The notes under the pieces were generated by a model. It saw nothing but the letters and a program-made list of their open reading frames with translations, ran no database searches and was not told where the DNA came from. The position numbers and the translations under genes were made by a program. From assembly GCA_021107455.1 (NCBI GenBank), contig JAIOSU010000212.1, positions 5,123-69,122 on the forward strand: a DNA stretch of 64,000 nucleotides, in the 5' to 3' direction. This document shows, piece by piece, positions 7,489-64,000 of this stretch (positions are counted from its first letter, which is position 1; every line of letters begins with the position of its first letter). The DNA is from Clostridiales bacterium. GTDB taxonomy: Bacteria > Bacillota > Clostridia > Peptostreptococcales > Acidaminobacteraceae.

Positions 7489-8304
7489 ATGCATAACAAT
7501 GAAGTGGATATGAATGGTCTTGTTCTGAAAATTGAAGAGCTATCCATTGCGTTCGGTGGACTTAAAGCAGTTGACGGACTCTCTTTTGAAATCAAGGAAA
7601 ATGAAGTTTTCGGTCTGATTGGTCCAAACGGAGCCGGGAAGACGACTGCCTTCAATTGCATCACACAATTTTACAAACCGGATTCCGGTGCGATTTATTT
7701 TAAGGATAGAAAAGGGCAAACTCAAAATCTTCTTGATCATGGCGTCCATGAAATCATAGAGCTAGGACTGGTGAGAACTTTTCAGAACGTTGAATTGATC
7801 CGAGAACTCAGTATCATAGACAATGTTTTGATCGGGGCACATACAGATTTTAAAGCCACGATTTTTTCTCAGGCTTTTAGATTCCCAAAAGCAGTTAAGG
7901 AAGAACGGGAAATGCGCGCAAAAGCTTACAAGATCTTAGAGACTCTGGGGATTGAAGATCGAGCAAATCTTCCAGTGGGCGGTCAACCATACGGTATCCT
8001 AAAAAAGGTGGAGTTTGCAAGATCTTTGATTTCAAACCCCAAGCTGATCATACTGGATGAGCCGGCTGCCGGTCTCAACGATGTGGAAACCATCGAACTG
8101 GCCAGCAGGATCAGAAAAATTCGTGATGAACTCGGTTGCTCCATATTGCTGGTGGAACATGACATGCGCCTGGTGATGGACGTTTGCGACAGAATATGTG
8201 CCATATCATTTGGAAAGTTCCTGGCTAAAGGCACACCCAAAGAAATCAAAGAAAATAAGGCAGTACAAGTCGCCTATTTGGGAATCGAGGTGGATCATGA
8301 CTAG
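7489..8304 (+). CDS. livG: Branched-chain amino acid ABC transporter ATP-binding protein (LivG-type)
   Basis: Walker A GPNGAGKTT, signature and Walker B LIILDEPAAGLN, and a LivG-type C-terminal tail. Confidence 0.88.
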   Translation: MHNNEVDMNGLVLKIEELSIAFGGLKAVDGLSFEIKENEVFGLIGPNGAGKTTAFNCITQFYKPDSGAIYFKDRKGQTQNLLDHGVHEIIELGLVRTFQNVELIRELSIIDNVLIGAHTDFKATIFSQAFRFPKAVKEEREMRAKAYKILETLGIEDRANLPVGGQPYGILKKVEFARSLISNPKLIILDEPAAGLNDVETIELASRIRKIRDELGCSILLVEHDMRLVMDVCDRICAISFGKFLAKGTPKEIKENKAVQVAYLGIEVDHD

Positions 8305-35895: not shown

Positions 35896-35939
35896 TAGTT
35901 TAATTAATTCAGACTAGATTAGTGGGGATTAAACAAATT

Positions 35940-36187
35940 AAAGGTTATGAAGAAGGAAAGTAGATTTGCCGTAGACTTAGCAGAGAGAAAACCATTGGTG
36001 AGAGGTTTTTAGTCAAAGTGATTCGAAGTGCCCTTCGGAACTGTGTACCGAAGTCTAGTAGGCTGCACCGGGTTTCTCCCGTTATTGAGATAGAGCATGG
36101 TGTGCTCGAAGAGTGGATATTTCAATTAGAGTGGAACCGCGGAGTTTAGCTTCGTCTCTTGACAAAGAGACGGGGCTTTTTTTGTAT
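35940..36187 (+). promoter_or_regulatory. T-box leader (tRNA-sensing riboswitch), probable Cys specifier, with terminator
   Basis: GA/K-turn-like UGAAGAAGGAAAGUAG. AGAGA plus GGUGAGAG distal motifs (35983-36005). AGUA..UGC-A candidate specifier (TGC at 36064-36066). T-box sequence AGAGTGGAACCGCGG (36128-36142). Terminator CGTCTCTT-gaca-AAGAGACG plus a T-run (36153-36187). Confidence 0.78.
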
Positions 36188-39428: not shown

Positions 39429-39963
39429 TCAATCCTCCTTGATTCTAGACTTGTAAGATACATAAGTGTTGAGTGTATCAATGTAGTTGAGCAGTCCACC
39501 GCCACGTTCCTTTTTTATTAAAAAATCAGTATCCATGGATTTATATGGGATTGATCTGCGTTCTTTCTTAATGAAGTACTCATTGATAGTTTCGTAAGGA
39601 ACCAAATAATAAGTATCGTTGAATTTAAAATGAACAATTATGAATGCGAGACCACCTTGTTTGTCCACATCTTTCATATATTCGATCTGATGCTCATGAA
39701 TATTGCTGAGTGGCAGGCTTTTTAGATTGGTTTCTTTAGCATCGAAAGCGATAAATACTCCCTGGACGATTCCAATGAAGTCCACCGTGGACTTTTTTTC
39801 GAAAAAGCCTTTGGTGACCATACCTGTATTGCTGATTTCAACAACCTTGACCGGAGTGCTGATCTTATCAACGCGACACAGTCCAAGTTGGTGGTAGTAC
39901 TGATTGGTATAAAGCAGTAGTTCTTCCAGTACATCACCACGATGTCCGCTTTTTGACCACATT
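39429..39963 (-). CDS. recU: Holliday junction resolvase RecU
   Basis: GHRGDVLEELLLYTNQYYHQLGLCRVDKISTPVKVV...VDFIGIVQGVFIAFDAKET. I start it at MWSKSG (ATG 39963), preceded by CAGGGAGG; the longer track ORF has no RBS. Confidence 0.82.
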
Positions 39964-40038
39964 ATGTTTGTCCTCCCTGTATTATCATATATCAAGTCTA
40001 TCATGATTTTGTAAACCTGTGAATAATGAAGAATAAGT

Positions 40039-40059
40039 TGTGGATAAAAGTGTGGATAA
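40039..40059 (+). promoter_or_regulatory. Tandem pair of perfect DnaA-box 9-mers (TGTGGATAA x2 = complement of TTATCCACA)
   Basis: TGTGGATAA at 40039-40047 and 40051-40059. A one-mismatch copy, TGTGGATAg, lies near 40247-40255. About 75-95 nt upstream of the recU start. Confidence 0.55.
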
Positions 40060-40298
40060 TGTGCATAACCGAACGTTGACAAATAGACATTGGCCTCAAT
40101 AGAGCCAGTTTTGACCAGGAAACATCAAATTGATGAATTAATAGAGGCAAATGTTAAAGAATGTTCGACATTTGTTTACAATTTCTTAACATTAAACTAA
40201 ATAAGTCGATAATTTTGAATAGTGTTGGTTCACATAATAATTATAATAATGTGGATAGGCTGTTAACAATATGTTCATAGGTTTTTATTTAAAATCAT

Positions 40299-40327
40299 TT
40301 GACAGGGTATTAAAAAGATAGTATTAT
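40299..40327 (+). promoter_or_regulatory. Consensus sigma-A promoter of the selenoprotein operon
   Basis: TTGACA (40299-40304), 17 nt, TATTAT (40322-40327). Confidence 0.7.
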
Positions 40328-40333
40328 ATTATT

Positions 40334-40354
40334 ACACCCCCAAGGCAGGGGGAT
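40334..40354 (+). promoter_or_regulatory. Candidate CsoR/CstR-family operator (C5-N6-G5 inverted repeat)
   Basis: ACACCCCC-AAGGCA-GGGGGAT, between the -10 and the RBS. CsoR-family operators are C-tract/G-tract inverted repeats. Confidence 0.45.
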
Positions 40355-40365
40355 GGGAGGCTTTG

Positions 40366-40653
40366 ATGAAAATTTCACTAACTCAGAGTGCTATTGAGAA
40401 ATTAAAAAAAGAATCGAACCCCAAAAGTGGTTACCGAATCAATGTACTCGGCGTTGGCTGAGGCGGTCCAAAATTTGGATTTGTTCGGGACGAACAAAAG
40501 GAAAATGATTACTTGGAAGTAATAGAGGGTATCAAAGTATTTGCAGACACTGAACTTATCGAAACTCATCATGGATTCAAGGTGGATTACTCCAGTTTCC
40601 TATTGACACGAGGTTTTTATGTCCAGGCTTTGCATTACGGTTCGAGATGTTAA
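40366..40653 (+). CDS. HesB/IscA-like selenoprotein; in-frame TGA (40459-40461) read as selenocysteine
   Basis: Manual translation: MKISLTQSAIEKLKKESNPKSGYRINVLGVG-U-GGPKFGFVRDEQKENDYLEVIEGIKVFADTELIETHHGFKVDYSSFLLTRGFYVQALHYGSRC*. GGGAGG RBS at 40355-40360. The TGA aligns with the first conserved Cys of IscA ([12 protein letters not shown]). The frame stays open for 63 codons after the TGA. Confidence 0.75.
40480..40498 (+). promoter_or_regulatory. Candidate bacterial SECIS hairpin
   Basis: UUUGUUCG-GGA-CGAACAAA: an 8-bp stem with G-containing apical loop. It starts 21 nt after the first base of the UGA (18 nt past the codon), and the loop G is 29 nt from it. Confidence 0.5.
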
Positions 40654-40678: not shown

Positions 40679-40912
40679 ATGTCTAAAAATGTTGTAATTT
40701 ATTCAAGCAATACTTGTGGTTATTGTACTATGGCAAAAGAGTACTTAAATGAAAAAGGCGTCTCTTTTACAGAAAAAAATGTGTCAACTGATATCGAAGC
40801 TCGCAAGGAGTTGATGTCAAAAGGATTCATGGGCGTTCCAGTGATTTATGTTGAGGACGAAGTGATCCAAGGTTTTGACAAAGCAAGATTGGATACGCTT
40901 TTGGGATTATAA
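40679..40912 (+). CDS. Glutaredoxin-like protein (YruB/NrdH-like, CGYC active site)
   Basis: VVIYSSNTCGYCTMAKEYLNEKGVSFTEKNV...GVPVIYV. Confidence 0.85.
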   Translation: MSKNVVIYSSNTCGYCTMAKEYLNEKGVSFTEKNVSTDIEARKELMSKGFMGVPVIYVEDEVIQGFDKARLDTLLGL

Positions 40913-40926
40913 GCGGAAGCATTGGA

Positions 40927-40950
40927 AGAGCCCCGTATGGGCTCTTTTTA
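40927..40950 (+). terminator. Intrinsic terminator/attenuator between the glutaredoxin gene and the CoADR-fusion gene
   Basis: AGAGCCC-cgtat-GGGCTCT followed by TTTTT. Confidence 0.55.
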
Positions 40951-40977
40951 TTTGAATATGATTAAATGGAGGTAACA

Positions 40978-43461
40978 ATGAAACAGAAGGTTTTGATAGT
41001 CGGCGGTGTCGCCGGTGGAGCTAGTGCAGCAGCACGTCTTAGAAGGGTAGATGAAAACGCGGAAATTATCATGCTTGAAAGAGGACCGTACATATCATTT
41101 GCGAACTGTGGTCTTCCTTATTATGTAGGTGGAACAATTGAAGAAAGAAGTGCGCTTTTACTTCAAACTCCAGAAGCGATGAAAGCAAGATTCAATATTG
41201 ATGTCCGTGTGGAAAATGAAGTTTTGTCAATTGATAGAGAGAAAAAGACAGTAGAGATCAGAGACATCAAATCAGCCAATGTCTATGAGGAATCATATGA
41301 TGTATTAGTACTTTCACCTGGATCAACACCGCTTAAGCCTCCAATTCCTGGCATTGATGCCCCAAATATTTTTTCGTTATGGAACATTCCTGATGTTGAT
41401 AGAATCAAAGGCTTTGTTGATGGCATGAAGCCAAAGACTGCCGCAGTCATAGGGGGAGGTTTCATCGGTCTTGAAATGGCTGAAAACTTGCACGATTTAG
41501 GTATTGAGGTCTCTGTTATTGAAATGGCTGACCAAGTCATGGCTCCAGTAGATTTTGAAATGGCCCAAATTGTTCATAAACATATGAAGACCAAAAATGT
41601 CGGACTTTATTTGGGTGATGGAGTAAAATCATTCGAATATCATAACGGCAAAACAAGAGTTACACTTCAAAGCGGAAAATCTGTAGAAGTGGACGTTGTA
41701 ATCCTTTCCATTGGAATCAGACCACAAAGTGAACTTGCCAAAAATGCAGGTCTTGAAATGAACCAGAGAAACGGAATTGTTGTGGATGCCTCATTAAAGA
41801 CGTCAGATCCAAGCATATATGCAATTGGGGATGCCATTGAAGTTGTTGACTTCATAGGTGGACAAAAAACCATGATTCCTCTTGCTGGACCAGCCAACAA
41901 GCAAGGTCGTATCTGTGCTGACAATATCGCTGGAATTCAGAGCACGTACAAAGGCACTCAAGGTACATCTGTAGCGAAAGTATTCGACCTTACGGTTTCA
42001 GCTACCGGTGTCAATGAAAAAACACTGATCAGAGAAGGCAAAGTATACGGAAAAGATTATTACACGACACTTATTCATCCGAATTCACATGCAGGATACT
42101 ATCCAGGTGCAATTCCTATGACACTTAAGTTGATCTTCGGTATGGACGGAAAAGTACTTGGCGCACAAAACGTTGGATATGATGGAGTAGAAAAACGTAT
42201 TGACGTCATCGCCACTGCCATCAGATTCAATGCAACTGTATTTGATTTGACAGAACTTGAACTTGCTTATGCACCGCCGTATTCTTCAGCGAAGGATCCT
42301 GTGAATATGGCAGGTTTCGTCGGTGAGAATATTCTTAAGGGAATCACAAAACCATTTCAATGGCATGAGTTCAAGTCCATCGATAAAGATGTGATCATTC
42401 TGGATGTCAGAGAGCCAATCGAAAGAGATATGGGATTCATCACCGGTTCGATCAACATCCCTGTGGATTCACTCAGAGACAGAATGCATGAACTGGATAA
42501 AAACAAGAAAATTGTAATATACTGTGCGGTAGGAATCAGAGGCCATGCTGCATCCAGAATTTTGATGCAAAATGGATTTGAGAATATCTACAATCTCATG
42601 GGTGGGTATACAACTTATGCGACTGTCCTTTGTCAGGATGACAACAAAGCATGTGGAGGTATTTCATTCAATTCAGAAATACATCTTACAGAATCAGGAG
42701 ATGTAGAAGATGCACATGAAATAGATGACGCAAATGCAGAAGTGATCAAACTCAATGCCTGTGGACTACAATGTCCTGGTCCGATCATGCAAGTGAGCAA
42801 ATCCATAGAAGCGATGAAAGTCGGCGATATTCTGGATGTCAAAGCAACAGACCCGGGTTTCATGAGTGATATCGGTGTTTGGTGTGATAAGACAGGAAAT
42901 ACGTTGATTGATTCGGGCAAAGAAGACAAACAGTTTTTCGCTCGTATCAGAAAAGGTAAGAAGAAAGTGGCAAATGCTCTTGTAGAATCTAAAGATGATA
43001 AGACCATTGTGGTATTCAGTGGTGATCTTGATAAAGCTATTGCGACACTCATCATAGCAAACGGTGCAGCATCCATGGGTAAAAAAGTGACGCTTTTCTA
43101 TACATTCTGGGGACTCAATATACTCCGAAGACCTGAAAAAGTCAATGTAAAGAAAGATTTTATCGGGAAAATGTTCAGTTCCATGTTGCCTAGAGGTACA
43201 AGGAAGTTAGGGCTTTCAAAAATGAACATGCTCGGAATGGGTCCAAAGATGATTCGTATGGTCATGAAAAAACATAATGTGGATTCACTTGAATCCATGC
43301 TTCAAATGGCTATAGATAATGGTGTTCGCATGGTGGCATGCAACATGTCGATGGATTTGATGGGAATTACACAGGAAGAGTTGATAGACGGTATTGAACT
43401 CGGTGGTGTGGCTTCTATGCTTGGTGCCGCTGAAGATTCAAATATGAGCTTATTCATATAG
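40978..43461 (+). CDS. Four-domain fusion: CoA-disulfide reductase/NADH-persulfide-reductase-like flavoprotein + rhodanese + TusA/SirA-like + DsrE/DsrF-like
   Basis: VLIVGGVAGGASAA...SFANCGLPYY (redox Cys)...GGGFIGLE. Rhodanese: IILDVREP...IVIYCAVGIRG. TusA-like: LNACGLQCPGPIM. DsrE-like: KTIVVFSGDLDKA...VACNMSMDLMG. ATG 40978 follows GGAGG. Confidence 0.8.
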   Translation: MKQKVLIVGGVAGGASAAARLRRVDENAEIIMLERGPYISFANCGLPYYVGGTIEERSALLLQTPEAMKARFNIDVRVENEVLSIDREKKTVEIRDIKSANVYEESYDVLVLSPGSTPLKPPIPGIDAPNIFSLWNIPDVDRIKGFVDGMKPKTAAVIGGGFIGLEMAENLHDLGIEVSVIEMADQVMAPVDFEMAQIVHKHMKTKNVGLYLGDGVKSFEYHNGKTRVTLQSGKSVEVDVVILSIGIRPQSELAKNAGLEMNQRNGIVVDASLKTSDPSIYAIGDAIEVVDFIGGQKTMIPLAGPANKQGRICADNIAGIQSTYKGTQGTSVAKVFDLTVSATGVNEKTLIREGKVYGKDYYTTLIHPNSHAGYYPGAIPMTLKLIFGMDGKVLGAQNVGYDGVEKRIDVIATAIRFNATVFDLTELELAYAPPYSSAKDPVNMAGFVGENILKGITKPFQWHEFKSIDKDVIILDVREPIERDMGFITGSINIPVDSLRDRMHELDKNKKIVIYCAVGIRGHAASRILMQNGFENIYNLMGGYTTYATVLCQDDNKACGGISFNSEIHLTESGDVEDAHEIDDANAEVIKLNACGLQCPGPIMQVSKSIEAMKVGDILDVKATDPGFMSDIGVWCDKTGNTLIDSGKEDKQFFARIRKGKKKVANALVESKDDKTIVVFSGDLDKAIATLIIANGAASMGKKVTLFYTFWGLNILRRPEKVNVKKDFIGKMFSSMLPRGTRKLGLSKMNMLGMGPKMIRMVMKKHNVDSLESMLQMAIDNGVRMVACNMSMDLMGITQEELIDGIELGGVASMLGAAEDSNMSLFI

Positions 43462-43479: not shown

Positions 43480-43746
43480 ATGGTTGAAATGGATGATGAC
43501 AAAAAGAAAATCATCAATCGACTAAAGACAATCAAAGGTCATGTCCAAGGAATTGAGAATATGGTTGAAAGTGATAAGGGCTGTGATGAGATTCTGGTTC
43601 AAATTGCCGCAATCAAACAATCCATCCACAAAGTCGGACTGGCAATCATGGAAAGGCAAGCTACAAGCTGTTTCATGGAAGAGGACAAAGTCGATAAGGA
43701 AAAAATGGAAGAGTTGATCAAATTGATGTTCAATTACACCAAATAG
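43480..43746 (+). CDS. CsoR/RcnR-family (DUF156) repressor, CstR-like (no Cu-ligand His)
   Basis: IINRLKTIKGHVQGIENMVESDKGCDEILVQIAAIKQSIHKVGLAIMERQATSCF. Two Cys are present, but Gln sits at the position four residues before the second Cys, where CsoR has His. Confidence 0.75.
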   Translation: MVEMDDDKKKIINRLKTIKGHVQGIENMVESDKGCDEILVQIAAIKQSIHKVGLAIMERQATSCFMEEDKVDKEKMEELIKLMFNYTK

Positions 43747-43811: not shown

Positions 43812-44987
43812 TTATAAAGATTCTATAAAATCTTTCTTACTGATGCGATTAGCCAGTGCCTTTTTAAGCTTTGAGGATTTGGATATGTCATCGAGCAAAA
43901 TGCCACCGACAAGAATATCATCCACAAAGAAATATTTTTCGAAATGGTTGTCGTCTTTGACCTTGTGAGAGTCATATGTCGTACCTGGATCACTGCCCAC
44001 ATCCCCGATGGAAAACAGTCTCATGTTCATCCCTTGATAAATGTTGAAAGGAATCACAGGTTCATAGACAGATCGGATTCCGACAGAGTTGAGTCCGGCA
44101 ATCTTTCCTTGGTCTACTGATTCTGGCCAAATTGCATAATTGATACCTTTGTGTTCCGCACAGTCTCCGGCGGCATAAATATCGGCATGGCTGGTTTTCA
44201 TGAAATCATCGACCACAATTCCGCGTTCGATCTTTAGTCCTGCTTCCTTGGCAAGTGCTGTGTCTGCTCGGACACCGATTGAAAAAATGACAAAATCTGC
44301 ATCAATTATGGTGCCATCAGACAATTCTACACCTTTTGCTGAATCCTCACCAACAATACCTTTGGTTTGAACCCCTTTCATAACTTTGATTCCTGTGCTA
44401 GCGACCTTATTTTCAAATATCTCCGAAGCTTCAAGATCCAGTTGTCTCGGCAACAGTCGGTCCATCATTTCAACCACATCTACTGAAATGTCAAGCTTTC
44501 TAAGCTGCCAGCCCAGTTCCAGGCCAAGTAAGCCGCCGCCAATGATCACTGTTTTTTTTGAGGTGCTCGCAAGTTCTTTAATCTTTTCAGCATCGTCAAG
44601 GTTTCGGAGAGAAACGACATTTTTAAGTGTTGAACCAGGCATTGGAGGTATGAAGTTGTTGCTGCCTGAACAGATGATCAGGGCATCATAAGAAATTTCT
44701 TCACCAGAGTCAAGAATTAACTCATGTGCTTCAGGAAGAATCTGCTTGACTATACTGGATGTCTTAAGAAGGATATTATTTTCTTTATACCAATTCAAGT
44801 CGTGCAAATAGAAACGCTTTGGAAGGGATTCCTCACTCACGTATTCTGAAAGCATCGGGCGATAGTAAACTGGCCTTTCCTCTTTTGAGATGATTGTGAT
44901 TTCATATGAGTTATTTTGGTTCAAAATTTCTTCGGCGGCAGCATTTCCAGCCGCGCCATTCCCGATGATAACTATTTTTTTTGACAT
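43812..44987 (-). CDS. FAD-dependent pyridine nucleotide-disulfide oxidoreductase, probable NADH:rubredoxin oxidoreductase (NROR)
   Basis: KIVIIGNGAAGNAAA...VIIGGGLLGLELG...AAGDCAE. Divergent from the rubredoxin gene. Confidence 0.65.
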   Translation of the reverse strand: MSKKIVIIGNGAAGNAAAEEILNQNNSYEITIISKEERPVYYRPMLSEYVSEESLPKRFYLHDLNWYKENNILLKTSSIVKQILPEAHELILDSGEEISYDALIICSGSNNFIPPMPGSTLKNVVSLRNLDDAEKIKELASTSKKTVIIGGGLLGLELGWQLRKLDISVDVVEMMDRLLPRQLDLEASEIFENKVASTGIKVMKGVQTKGIVGEDSAKGVELSDGTIIDADFVIFSIGVRADTALAKEAGLKIERGIVVDDFMKTSHADIYAAGDCAEHKGINYAIWPESVDQGKIAGLNSVGIRSVYEPVIPFNIYQGMNMRLFSIGDVGSDPGTTYDSHKVKDDNHFEKYFFVDDILVGGILLDDISKSSKLKKALANRISKKDFIESL

Positions 44988-45120
44988 TGTAGTGCCTACC
45001 TTTCTTTTGCAATTTCATTATGTTACAATTTTTATACCAAATAAACTCCAGTTCAAGCAAAATAATATTTATAATTTTGTTTGGTTGGAATGATTATTGG
45101 GGTATAAACAAAAAAGACTG

Positions 45121-45149
45121 TTGACATTAAAATTTATTAGTGTTATTAT
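45121..45149 (+). promoter_or_regulatory. Sigma-A promoter of the rubredoxin-perR-dfx operon
   Basis: TTGACA-17 nt-TATTAT. Confidence 0.65.
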
Positions 45150-45153
45150 CAAA

Positions 45154-45168
45154 TTGTAATCGTTACAA
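45154..45168 (+). promoter_or_regulatory. Candidate PerR/Fur-type box (7-1-7)
   Basis: TTGTAAT-C-GTTACAA immediately downstream of the -10. Resembles the B. subtilis Per box TTATAATnATTATAA. Confidence 0.5.
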
Positions 45169-45221
45169 CTTGAGAATGAAAACAGTCAAAACAAAATTTA
45201 AAGTATAAGGAGAGTATGATT

Positions 45222-45380
45222 ATGAAGTATGAATGTGTAGCTTGTGGTTATGTTTATGATCCTGAAATTGGAGATCCAGATGGCGGAGTAGCTCCTGGAA
45301 CAGCTTTTGAAGATATTCCAGAAGATTGGGTATGTCCACTATGTGGAGTAGGCAAGGATATGTTTGAGCCTTTGGCTTAA
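45222..45380 (+). CDS. Rubredoxin (52 aa; below the ORF-track length cutoff)
   Basis: [52 protein letters not shown]. Two CxxCG knuckles. AAGGAGAG RBS. Confidence 0.9.
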
Positions 45381-45411
45381 TTGTTGATGAAAGTGTGGGA
45401 AGGTGAATGAT

Positions 45412-45825
45412 ATGCAAGAAAATTATTTTGGAGATTTTTTGAGGAACAATGGAATAAAACCGTCGTTTCAACGGATCAAAATCTATGAATATTTGCTTCA
45501 AAACAAGGAGCATCCGACAGTTGAAACCATTTACAATGCCTTGAACAGTCAAATCCCCACACTTTCAAAAACTACTGTTTACAATACCTTGAAAGTTTTC
45601 ATAGAAAAAGGAATTGCAATGGCGATTACCATTGATGACACTGAAGTTCGTTTTGATGCGGATGTAAAAGTGCATGGTCATTTCAAATGTGAACATTGCC
45701 ATAAAATTTATGATTTTGAAGTCGATGTGGAGAGCATTTCCAGTGAGGCTCTCAAAGATTTTGATGTATATGATCAACAAATGTTTTTCTATGGGGTCTG
45801 CAAGGTTTGCAAGAACAATTCATAG
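45412..45825 (+). CDS. perR: Fur-family peroxide-responsive repressor (PerR-like)
   Basis: GIKPSFQRIKIYEYLLQNKEHPTVETIYNAL...HGHFKCEHCHKIYD...CKVCKNN. The PerR assignment rests on context. Confidence 0.7.
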   Translation: MQENYFGDFLRNNGIKPSFQRIKIYEYLLQNKEHPTVETIYNALNSQIPTLSKTTVYNTLKVFIEKGIAMAITIDDTEVRFDADVKVHGHFKCEHCHKIYDFEVDVESISSEALKDFDVYDQQMFFYGVCKVCKNNS

Positions 45826-45835
45826 GAGGTACTAA

Positions 45836-46213
45836 ATGAAGAAGCTTGATGTCTATAAATGCGAAGAATGCGGTAATATCGTAGAAGTTTTGCATTGGGG
45901 TGGCGGCGATCTTGTATGTTGTGGCGAAAACATGAAACTGATGGAAGAAAAATCAGCGGATTCAACAACTGAGAAGCATGTACCAGTGGTGGAAGCGATT
46001 CAAGGTGGCTATAAAGTGACCGTTGGTTCGACACTTCATCCAATGAAAGAAGAGCACTATATTGAATGGATAGAACTTATTACTGAAACTGATACATTGA
46101 TCACATTCCTCAAACCTGGCGATGAGCCTGTGGCTATTTTCAAAACTGATGAAAAGGCTGTTATGGCAAGAGAATATTGTAATCTCCACGGTTTGTGGAA
46201 AAACGAAATGTAA
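45836..46213 (+). CDS. dfx: Desulfoferrodoxin (2Fe superoxide reductase)
   Basis: [28 protein letters not shown] (desulforedoxin domain)...EKHVPVVE...[14 protein letters not shown]...CNLHGLW. Confidence 0.88.
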
Positions 46214-46276
46214 TCCAATATGAAGAGTTTAGGATCTAAACATTCTAAACTCTCTCTATGATAAAGGAGAGAAATT

Positions 46277-46783
46277 ATGATTAATCCAAGACTTGAAGAA
46301 GCAATTAACAAACAAATCAACGCTGAACTTTACTCAGCGTATCTTTATCTATCTATGGCAGCTTATTTTGAAGATGCCAATCTACCGGGATTCGCAAATT
46401 GGATGCGCGTACAGTTCGAAGAAGAGCAATTTCATGGAATGAGATTCCTGAACTATCTTGTTGAACGAGGTGGCAGAGTAAAACTTGAAGCAATTGAAAA
46501 ACCTAGATTTGAATGGAATAGTGTTCTTGAGGTATTCGAAGAGACACTTGAGCATGAGAAACATGTAACTGCTTTGATCAACAACATCGCAGATATCGCT
46601 GAAGAAGAAAAAGACCGTGCAACACGTAACTTGTTGATTTGGTTCATCGATGAGCAAGTTGAAGAAGAAGGTGCTGCGGAGAAAATTATAAATGAACTCA
46701 AAATGATTGGTGGAGAAGGTCACGGCATGTTGATGCTCGATAGAGAATTTGCAGCTAGAACTTTTGTGCCACCTGTTATATAA
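46277..46783 (+). CDS. Non-heme ferritin
   Basis: LNKQINAELYSAYLYLSMAAYFE...FEEEQFHGMRFLNYL...LEHEKHVT. Confidence 0.85.
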   Translation: MINPRLEEAINKQINAELYSAYLYLSMAAYFEDANLPGFANWMRVQFEEEQFHGMRFLNYLVERGGRVKLEAIEKPRFEWNSVLEVFEETLEHEKHVTALINNIADIAEEEKDRATRNLLIWFIDEQVEEEGAAEKIINELKMIGGEGHGMLMLDREFAARTFVPPVI

Positions 46784-46815
46784 ACTTTAAACTTTAAACT
46801 GGAGGGTAAATTAAT

Positions 46816-47391
46816 ATGGCGAGTATTAAAGGAACTAAAACTGAACAGAATTTATTGAAAGCATTTGCTGGAGAATCACAAGCTAGAAACAGATATCAAA
46901 TGTTTGCTAAGCAAGCTGAAAAAGATGGCTTTAGACAAATTGCGGATATTTTTATGGAAACCGCTGATAATGAGCGTGTTCACGCAGGAAGATTCTTCAG
47001 TTATCTCGAAGGTGGAGACGTGGAAATCACTGCAACTTATCCTGCAGGTAAAGTAGGCACAACACTTGAGAACCTTAAAGCAGCTGCAATGGGTGAAAAT
47101 GAAGAGTGGACTACACTTTATCCTGAATTTGCTAGAATTGCACGTGAGGAAGGCTTCCCGAAAGTTGCAGCAACATTTGACTTCATCTCAAAGGCTGAAA
47201 TTGAGCATGAGAACAGATACAACAAACTTGCAAGCAACATTGAAAACGACATCGTGTTCAAAAGAGATGAAGTTGTGAGATGGAAATGCAACAAGTGTGG
47301 ATATGTACATGAAGGCAATGAAGCTCCTGAAATTTGTCCGACATGTTTACATCCAAAAGAGCATTTTGAACTCAAGGAAACTAATTATTAA
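46816..47391 (+). CDS. rbr: Rubrerythrin
   Basis: GTKTEQNLLKAFAGESQARNRY...ADNERVHA...EIEHENRY plus C-terminal rubredoxin-like WKCNKCGYVHEG...CPTCLHP. Confidence 0.9.
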   Translation: MASIKGTKTEQNLLKAFAGESQARNRYQMFAKQAEKDGFRQIADIFMETADNERVHAGRFFSYLEGGDVEITATYPAGKVGTTLENLKAAAMGENEEWTTLYPEFARIAREEGFPKVAATFDFISKAEIEHENRYNKLASNIENDIVFKRDEVVRWKCNKCGYVHEGNEAPEICPTCLHPKEHFELKETNY

Positions 47392-50931: not shown

Positions 50932-52431
50932 ATGCGAGATATGCAAATATTGGATCTGCTAAAAAAGTTGATAGCGGTTCGGAGTGACAATGGAACCGTT
51001 TTTGAGAAGAAATTTGAACAGACCATTCTGTCTATTATAAAGAATATGGATTACTTTGTACAAAATCCCAATCACTTCGGATCGGAATCGATTGAGGATG
51101 ATTTGATGGGAAGGCGCATTGTTTGGGCATTCAAAGATAATTCCAGTGAAAAGACGGTTGTGCTTTTCGGCCATTATGATACAGTGGGTCTGGAAATGTA
51201 TGAGAATTACGATTATGATGAGGATGAAGACTGGCTATACGGTAGGGGAAGCTGCGATATGAAAGCGGGGCTTGCAATACAACTTCGACTCATGGAGAAG
51301 ATAGAGAGCACTGATTGTCCCAATTTGATTTTAATCAGTGTACCTGATGAAGAAGGTATGTCAGTAGGAATGCGTAGCGCCTCTATGCTTCTTAAGAGAC
51401 TGAAGAAGCAATTCAAACTGTCCTATAAATTGGCGATACTTTCAGAACCTCAACAAAAAGATGATAATCAGGTCTTCAAAGTGCATACCGGTTCGGTCGG
51501 AAAAATGTTGCCATTCATTATGACCAAAGGATCACCATCGCATGCTGGAATCCCTTTTTCGGGGTTGAGTTCCGTGGGTCTGATGAATGAGATCATAAAA
51601 GCCATTGAATTCAATACTGAAATGGGAGATATTGTAGAGCGTAAGATGTCACCTCCTCCAATTTTTCTTGGTATCAAATCCATGAAAAACAATTACGATG
51701 TGACCATGCCTGAATTTACTGCATCATATTTTAATTGGCTTTTTTTGAAAGATGATTTAGATAAAAAGATGAATCAACTCAAAAGTCTTTGTGTATGGTC
51801 TGCAGAAGATGCTATCAATCAATACAATTATTCCTATAATGAATTCCTTAGAAAACAAGGATTGCCTAGTTATGAGTGTTGTCATCAGATTGATGTCGAA
51901 GTCCTGTTTTATGATGAACTTATGGAAGTCGCATCGCAACATGTGGACACGAAAGCTTTGATAGAGAGAATCACATCTGATCATACTGATTTGTCCACAC
52001 AGGATTTGTCACTTTTGATCACAAAAGGATTGCTTGAAGCCATAAAAAGTCCGGAACCCATGATTGTCATTGGACTCCTGGCACCTTATTATCCAGTGGT
52101 GGACAGCGGCGATCACTATGAATCCGTAATCAAAGGAATTCTTGAAAAAAGTGTTGATGACCTTCAGTTGGAACTCCAGAAAGAATCATACTTCATGGGC
52201 ATATCGGATATGAGTTTCATTAAGAACACAAAAAATAAAAATCAAAGAATAAGGAATCTGATGCCTGTTGATTTTACGATTCATTTTGATGTGATTGATG
52301 AACTGGGGATAGAAGTGATCAATATAGGACCTTGGGGAAAGGATCTTCACAAAATCACAGAACGCGTTTATATTCCTGATGTCGTGGAGACTGTTCCTGA
52401 AATTATTAGAGATTTGATTAGAAACTTATGA
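50932..52431 (+). CDS. M20/M25/M40-family metallopeptidase, RocB-like
   Basis: VVLFGHYDTVG...GRGSCDMKAGLA...VPDEEGMS. Confidence 0.65.
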   Translation: MRDMQILDLLKKLIAVRSDNGTVFEKKFEQTILSIIKNMDYFVQNPNHFGSESIEDDLMGRRIVWAFKDNSSEKTVVLFGHYDTVGLEMYENYDYDEDEDWLYGRGSCDMKAGLAIQLRLMEKIESTDCPNLILISVPDEEGMSVGMRSASMLLKRLKKQFKLSYKLAILSEPQQKDDNQVFKVHTGSVGKMLPFIMTKGSPSHAGIPFSGLSSVGLMNEIIKAIEFNTEMGDIVERKMSPPPIFLGIKSMKNNYDVTMPEFTASYFNWLFLKDDLDKKMNQLKSLCVWSAEDAINQYNYSYNEFLRKQGLPSYECCHQIDVEVLFYDELMEVASQHVDTKALIERITSDHTDLSTQDLSLLITKGLLEAIKSPEPMIVIGLLAPYYPVVDSGDHYESVIKGILEKSVDDLQLELQKESYFMGISDMSFIKNTKNKNQRIRNLMPVDFTIHFDVIDELGIEVINIGPWGKDLHKITERVYIPDVVETVPEIIRDLIRNL

Positions 52432-52491: not shown

Positions 52492-52508
52492 ATTGTGTAT
52501 AACTTTTC

Positions 52509-52586
52509 TTATCCCCACTGTAAAGGGTTTAAATTAACATGATTTCAACAAGTAAAACAGGTAATTGTGGATAAAACTGTGGATAG
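52509..52586 (+). promoter_or_regulatory. DnaA-box-like cluster (three boxes)
   Basis: TTATCCcCA (52509-52517), TGTGGATAA (52566-52574), TGTGGATAg (52578-52586). The tandem pair has the same 12-nt register as the pair at 40039-40059. Confidence 0.5.
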
Positions 52587-61004: not shown

Positions 61005-62651
61005 ATGAAAGACTTGCTAAACAAAAGAAAAAAGGCGTTTGCAGTGTATGTTGCCGCCTGTTTGATTCCAGTGATCACTCAAATGATGAACAACTATGTT
61101 TTTGCCAGATTGCTTGGAAGTGTCGAATCGCAAAACATGAGAGAATTTTATATAGCCATTTACATTGCAGCAAGTTTTGTGATTCTTTCCACATTGCTTT
61201 ATATCCTGTCACGATTTCTTAGAATCCGTTTCATGAGGGACACGATACTTGATATAAGGCTTCAGGCATTTGACAAAATACTGAGATACAATTTGGAAAG
61301 ATTCGGAAAGAAATCCAAAGATGTGTATGTCTCCAATTTGATCAATGATATCAATCTGTTTGAGCAGAACTTCTTTTTCAAACTCATCAACATCATTTTC
61401 AGAGGAGGCGTATATGTTGTTTCCCTCGTTGTGCTTCTGATTCTTGATCCAAGATTCGCACTGGCTATATTTGCTGTATCTGTAGTTATTTTCTTGATTT
61501 CCAAGCGTTTTGAAAAGAAAACCATAGATCTTCAAGAGGATGTTTCCGGACGAAATGAAGCGTTTACTGTCAATGTTGCAAATACATTCAATGGACTCGA
61601 GATATTGAAGCTCAATAATATTGAAGAAACCTTTCTTGATAAGACACTGAAAATGATTGATCGAGTAGAAAGTAAAAAAATGCATTACGGCATTTTCGCA
61701 GAAGGACAAAGGAGTATTACTAGACTGCTTGGAACAGGTATTTTTGTAGTCATATTGATTTATATGCTGGAACAATTGAACCAGGGACTATCCATCACAA
61801 GAATGACGTTCATGATCCAACTTGCAAATGGATGTGTTTGGCCTCTTGAGCAGGTCATGCCTATGATTAATGAACTAAAAGCCTCAGTTAAAATCTATGA
61901 TAAGATTGCCGGTAACGATGTCGGTGAAAGTACTGCGGTTGAAGGTCAATTGCCCTTCGTATTCAATGAGTGTATTGAAATCAAGAATCTTTCTTTTCAT
62001 TTTGAGGATAGAAAGGTGTTGAGTGATATCAATCTGAAGATTGAAAAGGGCAAAAAGTATCTCCTAAAAGGTTCAAGCGGATCGGGAAAATCGACACTCA
62101 TCAAGCTTTTGTCCAAAGTATACGACGATTATGAGGGAACAATTGAAATTGACGGTGTGAATTTAAAGGATATCAAAATTTCTGAGTTCAATGATAAAGT
62201 CTCATTTATTTTTCAAGATGTCTTTTTATTTGAAGACACTTTATACAACAACATTGCACTATTCAAGCCAGATTATGAAGAGCGTGTCAAAGAAGCTGTA
62301 AAAAAATCCGGTCTGAGTGATTTGGCGGAACGGAACCTGAATTTCATAAATATGGATTTGAGTGAAAATGGAAAAAATTTATCCGGTGGCCAGCGACAAA
62401 GGATTTCAATTGCTAGAGCCATAGCAAAAGATGTGGATGTGCTATTTGCGGACGAAGCCACTTCCAGTCTTGATGCTGAACTGGGGAGAAAAATTGAGGA
62501 GACGCTGCTGACAATGGAGTGTACATTGATTGCAGTCTCCCATAGAACCTATGAGGAAGTATCTGAAATGTATGACTTTGTGCTTGAACTGAAAAATGGG
62601 CATTTGACGACTTATTCGGGATTTGAGTATTTTGAGGAGGTCGTGGCCTGA
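61005..62651 (+). CDS. ABC exporter half-transporter (TMD-NBD fusion)
   Basis: N-terminal 6-TM region. GSSGSGKST Walker A, LSGGQRQRISIARA, VLFADEATSSLD. Confidence 0.85.
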   Translation: MKDLLNKRKKAFAVYVAACLIPVITQMMNNYVFARLLGSVESQNMREFYIAIYIAASFVILSTLLYILSRFLRIRFMRDTILDIRLQAFDKILRYNLERFGKKSKDVYVSNLINDINLFEQNFFFKLINIIFRGGVYVVSLVVLLILDPRFALAIFAVSVVIFLISKRFEKKTIDLQEDVSGRNEAFTVNVANTFNGLEILKLNNIEETFLDKTLKMIDRVESKKMHYGIFAEGQRSITRLLGTGIFVVILIYMLEQLNQGLSITRMTFMIQLANGCVWPLEQVMPMINELKASVKIYDKIAGNDVGESTAVEGQLPFVFNECIEIKNLSFHFEDRKVLSDINLKIEKGKKYLLKGSSGSGKSTLIKLLSKVYDDYEGTIEIDGVNLKDIKISEFNDKVSFIFQDVFLFEDTLYNNIALFKPDYEERVKEAVKKSGLSDLAERNLNFINMDLSENGKNLSGGQRQRISIARAIAKDVDVLFADEATSSLDAELGRKIEETLLTMECTLIAVSHRTYEEVSEMYDFVLELKNGHLTTYSGFEYFEEVVA

Positions 62652-64000
62652 TGAAAAAAGCATATTGGAAGGTACTGCCTTATCTTGCGGGCACAATTAT
62701 TGTTGCAATTTTTGCTCTTTCTGTCGAAGGATTACTTTCAATCAAGATGATGAAAACTATAGATGCGGCGCTTGGTGGGAACCGAGAATTACTTTTGGAT
62801 GAAGTGAAGTATCTTTTGATGATTACTCTTTTGGTATTACCATTTCAGCTTTTGTTGGTGTTTTCTAAAGCCATGTACAAAAGGAAAGCCATCACCAATT
62901 TGAAGTGGTACTATATCAACGAGGTGTTTTATCAAGACATCAGTTCATTTCATTCAGAAAACGCCGCCAATCACATCTCAGCCATGACCAATGATGTCAA
63001 TACAATTGAAAACAACTATGTTGAAGGTGTTTATGAAGTCGCATATGGAGTGGCATCTTTCCTTGTTGGGATTGCGGTCATCGCATATGTCAACCCTGTT
63101 ATACTCGTCGTCGGTGCGGGATTTGGCGTTTTGAGTGCAGTACTATCGAGTTTGCTTGGAAAACCTGTACAGAAGCATCATTCACAGCGGAGTATCCTGT
63201 TTGGCAATTATACTGTCTACATCAAAGAATTTTTAGGAGCATTTCAGATTATCAAGGCCAACAATCTGTCTTCTAAAGTAAAATCCGATTTTGAAGTGAA
63301 AAGTAAAGCCATTCAAGATAAAGGCTATGTGATCGATAAGATTTTCACTTTCATTAGCGCGCTACAAAATCTAATGATGACTTTATTGATGTTCGGTATT
63401 GTGGGCTTCTCGGTTTATATGGCCTTAAAAGGCGAAATCACGTTTGGTGGAGTGATATTGGTAGTGAACAATATGGAAAAAACCATGTTCCCACTTTCAC
63501 AAATTGGCGAGTGGATGCCCAAGATCATTTCGACCAAAGGGTTGTTTGAGAAACTTGATCAAGGATTGAAACGTGAGGAGCACAATGATGAGATTCTGGA
63601 AGTTGATGCTTTCAGAGAGTCATTCAGATTTGAATCTGTCGCTTTTGGATATGATGAAAAAAGCATATTCGAAGATGTTGATCTCGAATTCAAAAAAGGC
63701 GGCAAGTATCTTTTGGTTGGACCAAGTGGTGGGGGGAAATCCACCTTGCTTAGATTGTTCAGGAAATATGTGAAACCTAACGGTGGCAGGATGTTACTCG
63801 ATGGAAATGACATTGCACACATCAAGAAAGCTTCTTTTTACAAATTGATCTCCAATGTTGAGCAACAAGTGTTCTTGTTTGAAGATACTCTTAAAAACAA
63901 TATCGCCCTCCACAAAGAATGTACTGATGAAGCGCTTGAAAGAGCTATTCATCGAGCTGGTTTGGATGACTTTGTCCTTAATCACCCAGATGGTGTGAAC
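62651..64000 (+). CDS. ABC exporter half-transporter (TMD-NBD fusion), partial; runs off the right edge
   Basis: My own translation from ATG 62651 (TGATG overlap with the previous stop): MKKAYWKVLPYLAGTIIVAIF...GPSGGGKSTLLRLF... The frame is open to position 64000. Absent from the track because there is no stop in the window. Confidence 0.85.
   Translation, partial: MKKAYWKVLPYLAGTIIVAIFALSVEGLLSIKMMKTIDAALGGNRELLLDEVKYLLMITLLVLPFQLLLVFSKAMYKRKAITNLKWYYINEVFYQDISSFHSENAANHISAMTNDVNTIENNYVEGVYEVAYGVASFLVGIAVIAYVNPVILVVGAGFGVLSAVLSSLLGKPVQKHHSQRSILFGNYTVYIKEFLGAFQIIKANNLSSKVKSDFEVKSKAIQDKGYVIDKIFTFISALQNLMMTLLMFGIVGFSVYMALKGEITFGGVILVVNNMEKTMFPLSQIGEWMPKIISTKGLFEKLDQGLKREEHNDEILEVDAFRESFRFESVAFGYDEKSIFEDVDLEFKKGGKYLLVGPSGGGKSTLLRLFRKYVKPNGGRMLLDGNDIAHIKKASFYKLISNVEQQVFLFEDTLKNNIALHKECTDEALERAIHRAGLDDFVLNHPDGVN

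Follow-up and report, generated by a model that had tools for sequence, protein, structure and literature searches.

In a 64,000-nucleotide stretch of a Clostridiales genome (contig JAIOSU010000212.1; the whole stretch is called the window below), a frame of 96 codons lies between recU and a glutaredoxin gene, and we consider it very probable that a genuine selenoprotein gene stands here, coding for 95 residues with the HesB/IscA fold. An earlier note, made from the letters of the window, had read it as an unannotated, UGA-recoded gene of this kind, and that overall reading is supported by the conservation of the TGA in related genomes, by a covarying hairpin after it, and by the fold. From its ATG to the TAA at 40651–40653, the frame is interrupted solely by a TGA at codon 32, with 63 codons between the TGA and the TAA. 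The frame, the TGA coordinate and the translation put forward in the note are exact at every position, and the promoter and ribosome-binding site (RBS) that it named are both present (Table 1), the −35 and −10 boxes being kept at the same place in related loci L002, L003, L007, L018, L021 and L022. The gene is, as had also been pointed out, invisible to a stop-to-stop caller: the mechanical list of open reading frames (ORFs) gives only a 46-aa ORF (40513–40653) within it.

Table 1. Features of the selenoprotein locus and its downstream neighbours, in window coordinates
Feature	Position	Strand	Description and basis
Sigma-70-type promoter	40299–40327	+	TTGACA-17-TATTAT; 11 of 12 consensus positions
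C5-N6-G5 inverted repeat	40337–40352	+	CCCCC-AAGGCA-GGGGG; candidate CsoR/CstR-family operator or 5'-terminal mRNA hairpin
RBS	40355–40360	+	GGGAGG, 5 nt 5' of the ATG; read from the sequence
HesB/IscA-like selenoprotein gene (predicted)	40366–40653	+	MKISLT...GVG-U-GGP...HYGSRC; translation, family matches, orthologs, fold
In-frame UGA, predicted selenocysteine 32	40459–40461	+	Motif U-G-G-P; TGA in 11 diverged lineages, Cys-column alignment
Selenocysteine insertion sequence (SECIS)-like hairpin	40480–40498	+	8-bp stem, GGA loop at 40488–40490; begins 18 nt past the UGA; fold and covariation
Dithiol glutaredoxin-like gene (grx)	40679–40912	+	77 aa, C-G-Y-C; PF00462 68.9 bits, TIGR02196 (YruB-type) 82.3 bits
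Terminator-like hairpin	40924–40956	+	10 bp, then UUUAUUUG (U-run); −16.2 kcal/mol, z = −2.5; putative terminator function
CoA-disulfide-reductase (CoADR) + rhodanese + TusA + DsrE fusion	40978–43461	+	Pyr_redox_2, Rhodanese, TusA, DrsE_2 (Pfam); TIGR03385 502 bits
CsoR-family repressor, CstR-like, candidate regulator	43480–43746	+	Cys35/Gln60/Cys64, no His; PF02583 85.7 bits; translation

Conservation of the TGA and the hairpin behind it

A word-indexed search, made with selenocysteine (Sec, U) replaced by Cys in the query, returned three 95-aa proteins, 97%, 74% and 57% identical to it, whose database entries have Trp at position 32; the DNA of all three has TGA at codon 32, so these entries come from gene calling under genetic code 4. 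In the genome collection, three metagenome-assembled genomes (Bacillota/Clostridia) of 95–99% identity again carry TGA. An exhaustive profile search yielded 252 related cluster representatives, and in the best 153 of these the Sec column holds a spurious 'W' (U stored as W) in 109 and Cys in 26, while 16 are C-terminal fragments that begin directly past the column; the same annotation error is thus widespread. The DNA fetched for nine of the 'W' proteins, two of them on contigs of 12–29 kb, has TGA in 9/9, and on L021–L024, code-11 callers cut the gene into pieces of 35–42 aa and 55–60 aa that share one frame on the two sides of a single TGA. Across more than 25 independent assemblies and 11 diverged lineages, down to ~33% protein identity, the same codon is TGA, and every fetched related locus that encodes a U-type protein has this in-frame TGA. 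As a side observation, most database entries of the Sec clade (P0001–P0007, P0040, P0154–P0205 and others) are artefacts, either Trp mistranslations or TGA-split fragments.

Evolutionarily, the frame 3' of the TGA behaves as coding sequence. Counted at codon positions 1/2/3, the window differs from L002 at 14/5/34 sites and from L003 at 18/14/35, mostly at third positions, and orthologs with a coding substitution pattern span 57–99% identity. The alignment of orthologs that the earlier note had suggested therefore came out in favor of its reading, with the TGA and the downstream frame both retained and coding-type substitutions after the TGA. The alternation of Cys and Sec that it expected in this column is also seen, in the 26 Cys against 109 Sec forms counted above: L013–L017 have Cys codons (TGT/TGC-type) here, GMGCGGP-type forms occur among the relatives, and a metagenome scan with a 4-sequence alignment gave largely known lineages plus Cys forms. 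At the level of sequence comparison, these data show purifying selection on UGA32 and on the frame 3' of it across many lineages.

Elsewhere in the same DNA, TGA is an ordinary stop. It terminates ~15 of the 58 long ORFs in the window and also terminates ORFs on long related contigs, and is thus not generally a sense codon in these organisms. Decoding of UGA32 as tryptophan (GWGGP in public calls), whether under an alternative code or through near-cognate read-through, would agree with the W stored at the Sec column in most of the best 153 relatives. Against it, the 'W' proteins that were checked have TGA and not TGG, no relative with a true TGG was seen, many ordinary genes of the window and of the long related contigs terminate at TGA, the alternative residue in the column is Cys, and a conserved SECIS-like hairpin follows the codon; we regard the tryptophan reading as highly improbable. 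Practically negligible, in our view, is the chance that a nonsense mutation or an error in sequencing produced the TGA, leaving a pseudogene or two unrelated small ORFs. Although ORF callers see just the 46-aa ORF here, and code-11 annotations elsewhere list two small genes, the TGA recurs in the independent assemblies and lineages counted above, both halves lie in one frame under purifying selection, and neither half alone makes an IscA fold. A conserved TGA, a coding signature and the use of TGA as an ordinary stop together exclude a pseudogene, a sequencing error and code-4 decoding, and on the same grounds the two-small-ORFs reading was rejected. A crude scan of the window for further genes with an in-frame TGA gave merely out-of-frame or antisense noise.

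Structurally, the note had claimed an 8-bp hairpin with a GGA loop where a bacterial SECIS is expected, and this hairpin is present, conserved and covarying. Folded as 27 nt, it reaches −6.7 kcal/mol (z = −3.06), with 2/200 shuffles folding as well. To assess covariation, 11 diverged lineages were aligned without gaps over 54 nt starting at the TGA; in this alignment, the stem columns 23–29/33–39 correspond to window positions 40481–40487/40491–40497; 89.6% of the cells are paired, compensatory (both-side) changes occur in 5 of the 7 core pairs, none of 500 shuffles matches the observed stem values, and controls slid along the alignment pair at 34–57%. The two G that open the loop (G30 and G31) are invariant in the 11 sequences. 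In L020, four pairs are swapped and the encoded peptide changes from V-R-D-E-Q to T-L-E-E-S, which indicates that the structure is kept at the expense of the protein sequence. The predicted element therefore has the position, the GG loop and the covarying stem of a bacterial SECIS. Compared with the elements of the fdhF type and of clostridial selenoprotein genes, whose features are set out in figure legends of PMC1794560 and PMC1976440, it shares an intragenic position soon after the UGA, a loop G and a covarying stem, but the stem is short, at 7–8 bp (4–5 bp in the L019, L025 and L026 lineage), and has no evident bulged U.

Bacterial decoding of Sec proceeds by SelB-dependent insertion. At this locus, SelB with GTP and Sec-tRNA(Sec) would dock on the hairpin and insert selenocysteine at UGA32, placing a selenol where A-type carriers hold their first cluster-ligand Cys; the single thiol of the expected product would be its last residue, on a flexible tail, with no C-x-C pair.

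Family and fold of the predicted product

With the same U-to-C replacement in the query, the best NCBIfam match is TIGR01911 (HesB_rel_seleno), at 49.6 bits against a curated cut-off of 66.35 (E 4.6e-13), followed by NF038090 (IscA_HesB_Se) at 43.5 bits against 85 (E 3.1e-11) and TIGR00049 at 38.9 against 58.8; PF01521 scores 24.6 bits against a gathering cut-off of 26.3. The earlier note had named TIGR01911 as a HesB-like selenoprotein family, and this family does exist and ranks first; the proposed check against TIGR01911 and PF01521 gave significant matches to both, though each below its curated cut-off. Tested against NF038090, 36 relatives included 11 at E <= 4e-18, the best at 1.7e-23 (roughly the cut-off score of the model), and 2/36 reach the E-value that corresponds to the cut-off of TIGR01911. 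The sub-threshold score and these bridging relatives place the window protein at the edge of a continuous family, and, a curated cut-off being an operational threshold, we file the gene as a divergent family member outside the current model boundaries. What is very probably a real coding gene is thus missed by stop-to-stop callers, and the current NCBIfam thresholds would not rescue it.

Not surprisingly to a specialist, a HesB-like selenoprotein in a clostridial genome is of a known kind, and the note's remark that the family is not new is borne out by a record going back to 2004–2006: 11 members were counted in 2006, some of them clostridial (PMC1794560), and the protein of Methanococcus maripaludis was confirmed by 75Se labelling, its function being called unclear (PMC11097638). 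The window protein resembles this family in its length (~95–100 aa), its relation to HesB/IscA, its Sec at the first conserved Cys, its G-loop SECIS-like hairpin after the UGA, its Cys/Ser/Gly-type C-terminal tail, its Cys homologues and its anaerobic Firmicutes hosts (PMC1794560, PMC13188914), and U32-G-G-P fits UxGP, the motif listed for HesB-like selenoproteins (PMC13188914). It differs in falling below both curated cut-offs (TIGR01911 and NF038090) and in belonging to a small clade of its own (P0001–P0004, P0183, P0199, P0202, P0204 and P0205), whose C-terminus reads LTRGFY[IV]xA[LM]xYGS[RK]C. None of the clade relatives in the protein collection carries a selenoprotein name.

The structure of the product was assessed on an AlphaFold2 model of P0001, a protein 97% identical to the window's with W at position 32, from which the Sec/Cys95 geometry is not readable. 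The model has a predicted local distance difference test score (pLDDT) of 90.7, with its final residues at low confidence, and its top 8 Foldseek matches comprise IscA, SufA, HI1723 and AQ_1857, with TM-scores of 0.64–0.73 and E-values of 4.5e-6 to 1.2e-4. A sequence search of the PDB likewise gave HI1723 (2apn), AQ_1857 (1nwb) and E. coli IscA, in whose alignments the Sec column is the first ligand Cys (GGGC*SG in HI1723 and AQ_1857). The placement of the TGA on the first conserved Fe-S-ligand Cys, asserted in the note, is thereby borne out, and the predicted product, judged by this model, has the IscA/SufA (HesB/IscA) fold.

Beyond the fold, the likeness to IscA, SufA and ErpA (PF01521, TIGR00049; PDB 1r94, 1s98, 1x0g and 2d2a) extends to a reactive residue at the same position on the turn joining two strands and to a flexible, ligand-bearing C-terminal tail. 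The protein departs from them in having Sec for Cys, a single C-terminal Cys for C-x-C, a score below the PF01521 gathering threshold, and a genomic context in which isc, suf and nif are missing. The protein lacks the C-x-C (CGC) ligand pair and retains only U32 and the terminal C95; among the tails of U-type relatives, 59/103 end in Cys and 6/103 have C-x-C. DsrR, from the dsr cluster of Allochromatium vinosum (PDB 2k4z), offers a further comparison: it is an IscA fold in a sulfur-metabolism cluster and stands at Foldseek rank 11 with a TM-score of 0.70, but its identity to the window protein is just 18%. DsrR is not known to carry any of the ligand cysteines.

These features bear on whether the protein is a true A-type Fe-S carrier, in which Sec32 and Cys95 of two protomers would ligate a [2Fe-2S] cluster for delivery in the manner of IscA, SufA and ErpA, with the glutaredoxin as transfer partner. 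We consider this main rival among the functional readings doubtful, though little less probable than the redox role proposed below. The fold and the ligand position do match those of IscA with a [2Fe-2S] cluster (1x0g) and of SufA, the best matches to models other than the selenoprotein ones are TIGR00049, ErpA and SufA, and those Cys relatives that have names carry the annotation 'iron-sulfur cluster assembly accessory protein'; but the CGC pair has given way to one C-terminal Cys, isc and suf genes are missing from the surroundings, and the gene has a CsoR/CstR-type operator-like element at its promoter and sulfurtransferase and oxidative-stress genes as neighbours. In addition, the partner glutaredoxin is a dithiol CGYC protein, not a monothiol CGFS one, and monothiol CGFS glutaredoxins are the type that works with A-type carriers. 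Disruption of the HesB-like homologue of M. maripaludis, moreover, gave no nif phenotype, and the paper calls the function unclear (PMC11097638).

Several results weigh against the locus being a selenoprotein gene. All four family models, although significant, stay below their curated thresholds. The proposed folding check held for the 27-nt hairpin but not for its surroundings, as wider stretches of 47–66 nt after the UGA, folded as a single sequence, are no better than shuffles (z = −0.6 to −1.65). Some of the stem coincides with conserved codons (V-x-x-E-Q), and judged by sequence conservation alone, the structure would look better supported than it is. Finally, selA, selB, selD and tRNA-Sec were all absent from the window and the fetched flanks (ARAGORN on the window and 10 loci, which gave no tRNA, Rfam, and family scans of 40 window proteins), and a Sec-decoding trait of this genome is suggested solely by the conservation of the gene itself.

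Gene neighbourhood and possible function

Downstream of the predicted selenoprotein gene, grx begins 25 nt past its stop. A glutaredoxin (Grx) 72–100% identical stands directly downstream in L001, L003–L012 and L021–L024, and in L025–L028 a Grx lies 450–900 nt upstream of the gene for the Sec-containing HesB-like protein (Sec-HesB). The order recU(−), Sec-HesB(+), grx(+) was found in all loci with enough flank and holds as far as the L022 lineage, where RecU is 51% and the HesB-like protein ~34% identical to the window's. After grx come the terminator-like hairpin, which was missed by a pattern scan, and then the CoADR fusion gene, with no space for a promoter between the two; the fusion gene is possibly reached by read-through from grx. 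The same fusion also follows grx in L004–L007 and L012. The description of the selenoprotein gene as an anchor of the neighbouring operon is borne out in part: the gene leads a conserved pair with grx as its first cistron, and the terminator-like hairpin separates grx from the next gene. The fusion protein itself, of 827–831 aa, unites modules of the E. faecalis CoA-persulfide reductase and of S. aureus CstA.

Upstream, a palindrome of C and G tracts lies ~10 nt past the −10 box, where the window reads ACACCCCC-AAGGCA-GGGGGAT. It is the sole CCCC-N4-9-GGGG element in the 64 kb of the window and likewise the sole one on the 18–20 kb loci L005, L006 and L022; in 17 loci, the Sec-HesB gene has one such element immediately 5' of it, and the element's position relative to the promoter is the same in six further lineages. 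In L026, the palindrome reads ATATACCC-TAT-GGGGTATAT, near-identical to the core of the S. mitis cst operator, ATATACCCTTATGGGGTATAT (PMC8643695). The cst-type operator pattern used for comparison is ATACCC-N-GGGGTAT. A candidate regulator is encoded just past the fusion gene: CstR repressors are recognized by two Cys and the lack of the Cu-ligand His at the Y position (PMC8643695), and the CsoR-family repressor of the window has C35, Q60 and C64. A homologue 48% identical, with C/Y/C, is encoded 4 kb from the L022 gene. From these likenesses, above all that of L026 to the S. mitis core, we infer control by a CstR-like repressor through the candidate operator. In L022, a T-rich run and a further ~100 nt of leader come after the palindrome (8021–8050); the palindrome also scores as terminator-like there, and a leader attenuator is possible. 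An AT-rich near-palindrome at 40228–40246, tried as a PerR/Fur box, was dropped as it is not conserved in L002.

Taken together, the neighbourhood resembles the CstR regulons of S. aureus (cst) and of E. faecalis and S. mitis (cstR-rhd-coaP), with which it shares a dithiol CsoR-family repressor without the Cu-ligand His, an enzyme that joins CoA-disulfide/persulfide reductase and rhodanese with TusA and DsrE modules, and a C-tract/G-tract palindrome at a promoter, near-identical to the cst core in L026. It differs from them in that the palindrome precedes the Sec-HesB/grx pair and not a sulfurtransferase gene. In the literature library searched, no selenoprotein or HesB-like gene is recorded for these regulons, and a search for papers joining CstR to HesB-like proteins gave nothing relevant.

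Mechanistically, we tentatively suggest from this context that the product could be a Sec/Cys chalcogen-transfer or redox protein with a role in stress, under CsoR/CstR-gated expression. The protein would cycle via a selenenyl-sulfide or an Se-S-substrate adduct, which the co-transcribed dithiol glutaredoxin would reduce; a CsoR/CstR-type repressor would gate the promoter, and reactive-sulfur or oxidative stress would turn the gene on along with the neighbouring CoA-persulfide-reductase-like rhodanese/TusA/DsrE enzyme. A role as constitutive Fe-S scaffold appears less likely. This functional proposal has evidence against it as well: a terminator-like hairpin follows grx and speaks against simple co-transcription with the CoADR gene, that gene is non-adjacent in L022 and L025–L028, and the palindrome could be a 5'-terminal mRNA hairpin rather than an operator.

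A further possibility, which we rate as very unlikely, is that the protein serves as a metal chaperone or in detoxification, with its Sec/Cys pair as the site for a soft metal such as Cu(I), Hg or As and a metal-sensing CsoR as regulator. The regulator does belong to the CsoR/RcnR family, the window encodes an ACR3 arsenite pump and a heavy-metal P-type ATPase, and coordination of metal by Sec has been proposed for some selenoproteins in a recent review (PMC13188914); but the regulator lacks the Cu-ligand His (C35/Q60/C64, and C/Y/C in L022), as does CstR (PMC8643695), the metal pumps lie 7–20 kb off in other transcription units, and the immediate neighbours of the gene handle sulfur.

Returning to the chalcogen-transfer or redox role, we raise, as a wider and unlikely form of it, the idea that HesB-like selenoproteins as a group may be the selenol component of a CstR-type response to reactive sulfur species and not Fe-S assembly factors; Sec32/Cys95 would accept sulfane sulfur or reduce persulfides, the obligatorily linked dithiol Grx would recycle the protein, and the entire module would be derepressed once the CsoR-family dithiol sensor left the C-tract/G-tract operator at the promoter. 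The new elements here are the conserved pairing with a dithiol Grx and the CsoR/CstR-type operator-like element, both across lineages of 33–57% protein identity. With the CoADR-rhodanese-TusA-DsrE neighbour added, they provide a testable reactive-sulfur/thiol-stress hypothesis for a family that has gone two decades without an assigned function.

Flanking genes and minor features

Across distant clostridial lineages (L022 and L025–L028), the Sec-HesB gene lies near metG-tatD-rnmV(Toprim/DUF4093)-ksgA; in L025–L028, grx and Sec-HesB are separated by a DUF1858 gene, and ~0.5 kb upstream of grx stands a gene of the ArsR family (HTH_5). In the window, positions 43812–47391 form an oxidative-stress island with an NADH:rubredoxin-oxidoreductase-like flavoprotein (minus strand), rubredoxin, PerR, desulfoferrodoxin, ferritin and rubrerythrin, of which the rubredoxin (45222–45380) is missing from the 60-aa ORF list. 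Islands of this kind are typical of anaerobes.

On the other side of the locus, the mechanical recU ORF (39429–40082, minus strand) is over-extended at the 5' end: alignment to family models starts at residue 43–48, a GGGAGGA RBS precedes the ATG at 39962, and recU probably spans 39429–39962. The 600-nt gap between recU and the glutaredoxin gene given in the earlier note accordingly applies to the mechanical ORF, which ends at 40082, but becomes 716 nt if recU starts at 39962. The start at 39962 also places a cluster of DnaA boxes in the recU promoter region and not in coding sequence. These boxes, all on the plus strand, lie at 40018–40068 and 40250–40258 on the recU side of the intergenic region and comprise two perfect TGTGGATAA boxes 12 nt apart (40039–40047 and 40051–40059) plus three with one mismatch; pairs or triplets of perfect boxes occur at the same place in L001, L002, L005–L007, L010, L012 and L022–L024, with three boxes in L022. 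DnaA control of recU or titration of DnaA is possible. Further DnaA-box-like sites, one perfect and three with one mismatch, are found at 52494–52586, between a peptidase M20 gene (ending at 52431) and the next minus-strand gene.

Elsewhere in the window, a T-box leader (35938–36162; 113 bits) lies upstream of cysK-cysE, and the last ~1.3 kb (62651–64000), without an ORF >88 aa, holds fragments that resemble remnants, or the antisense, of an ABC-ATPase-like sequence and may be a decayed gene.

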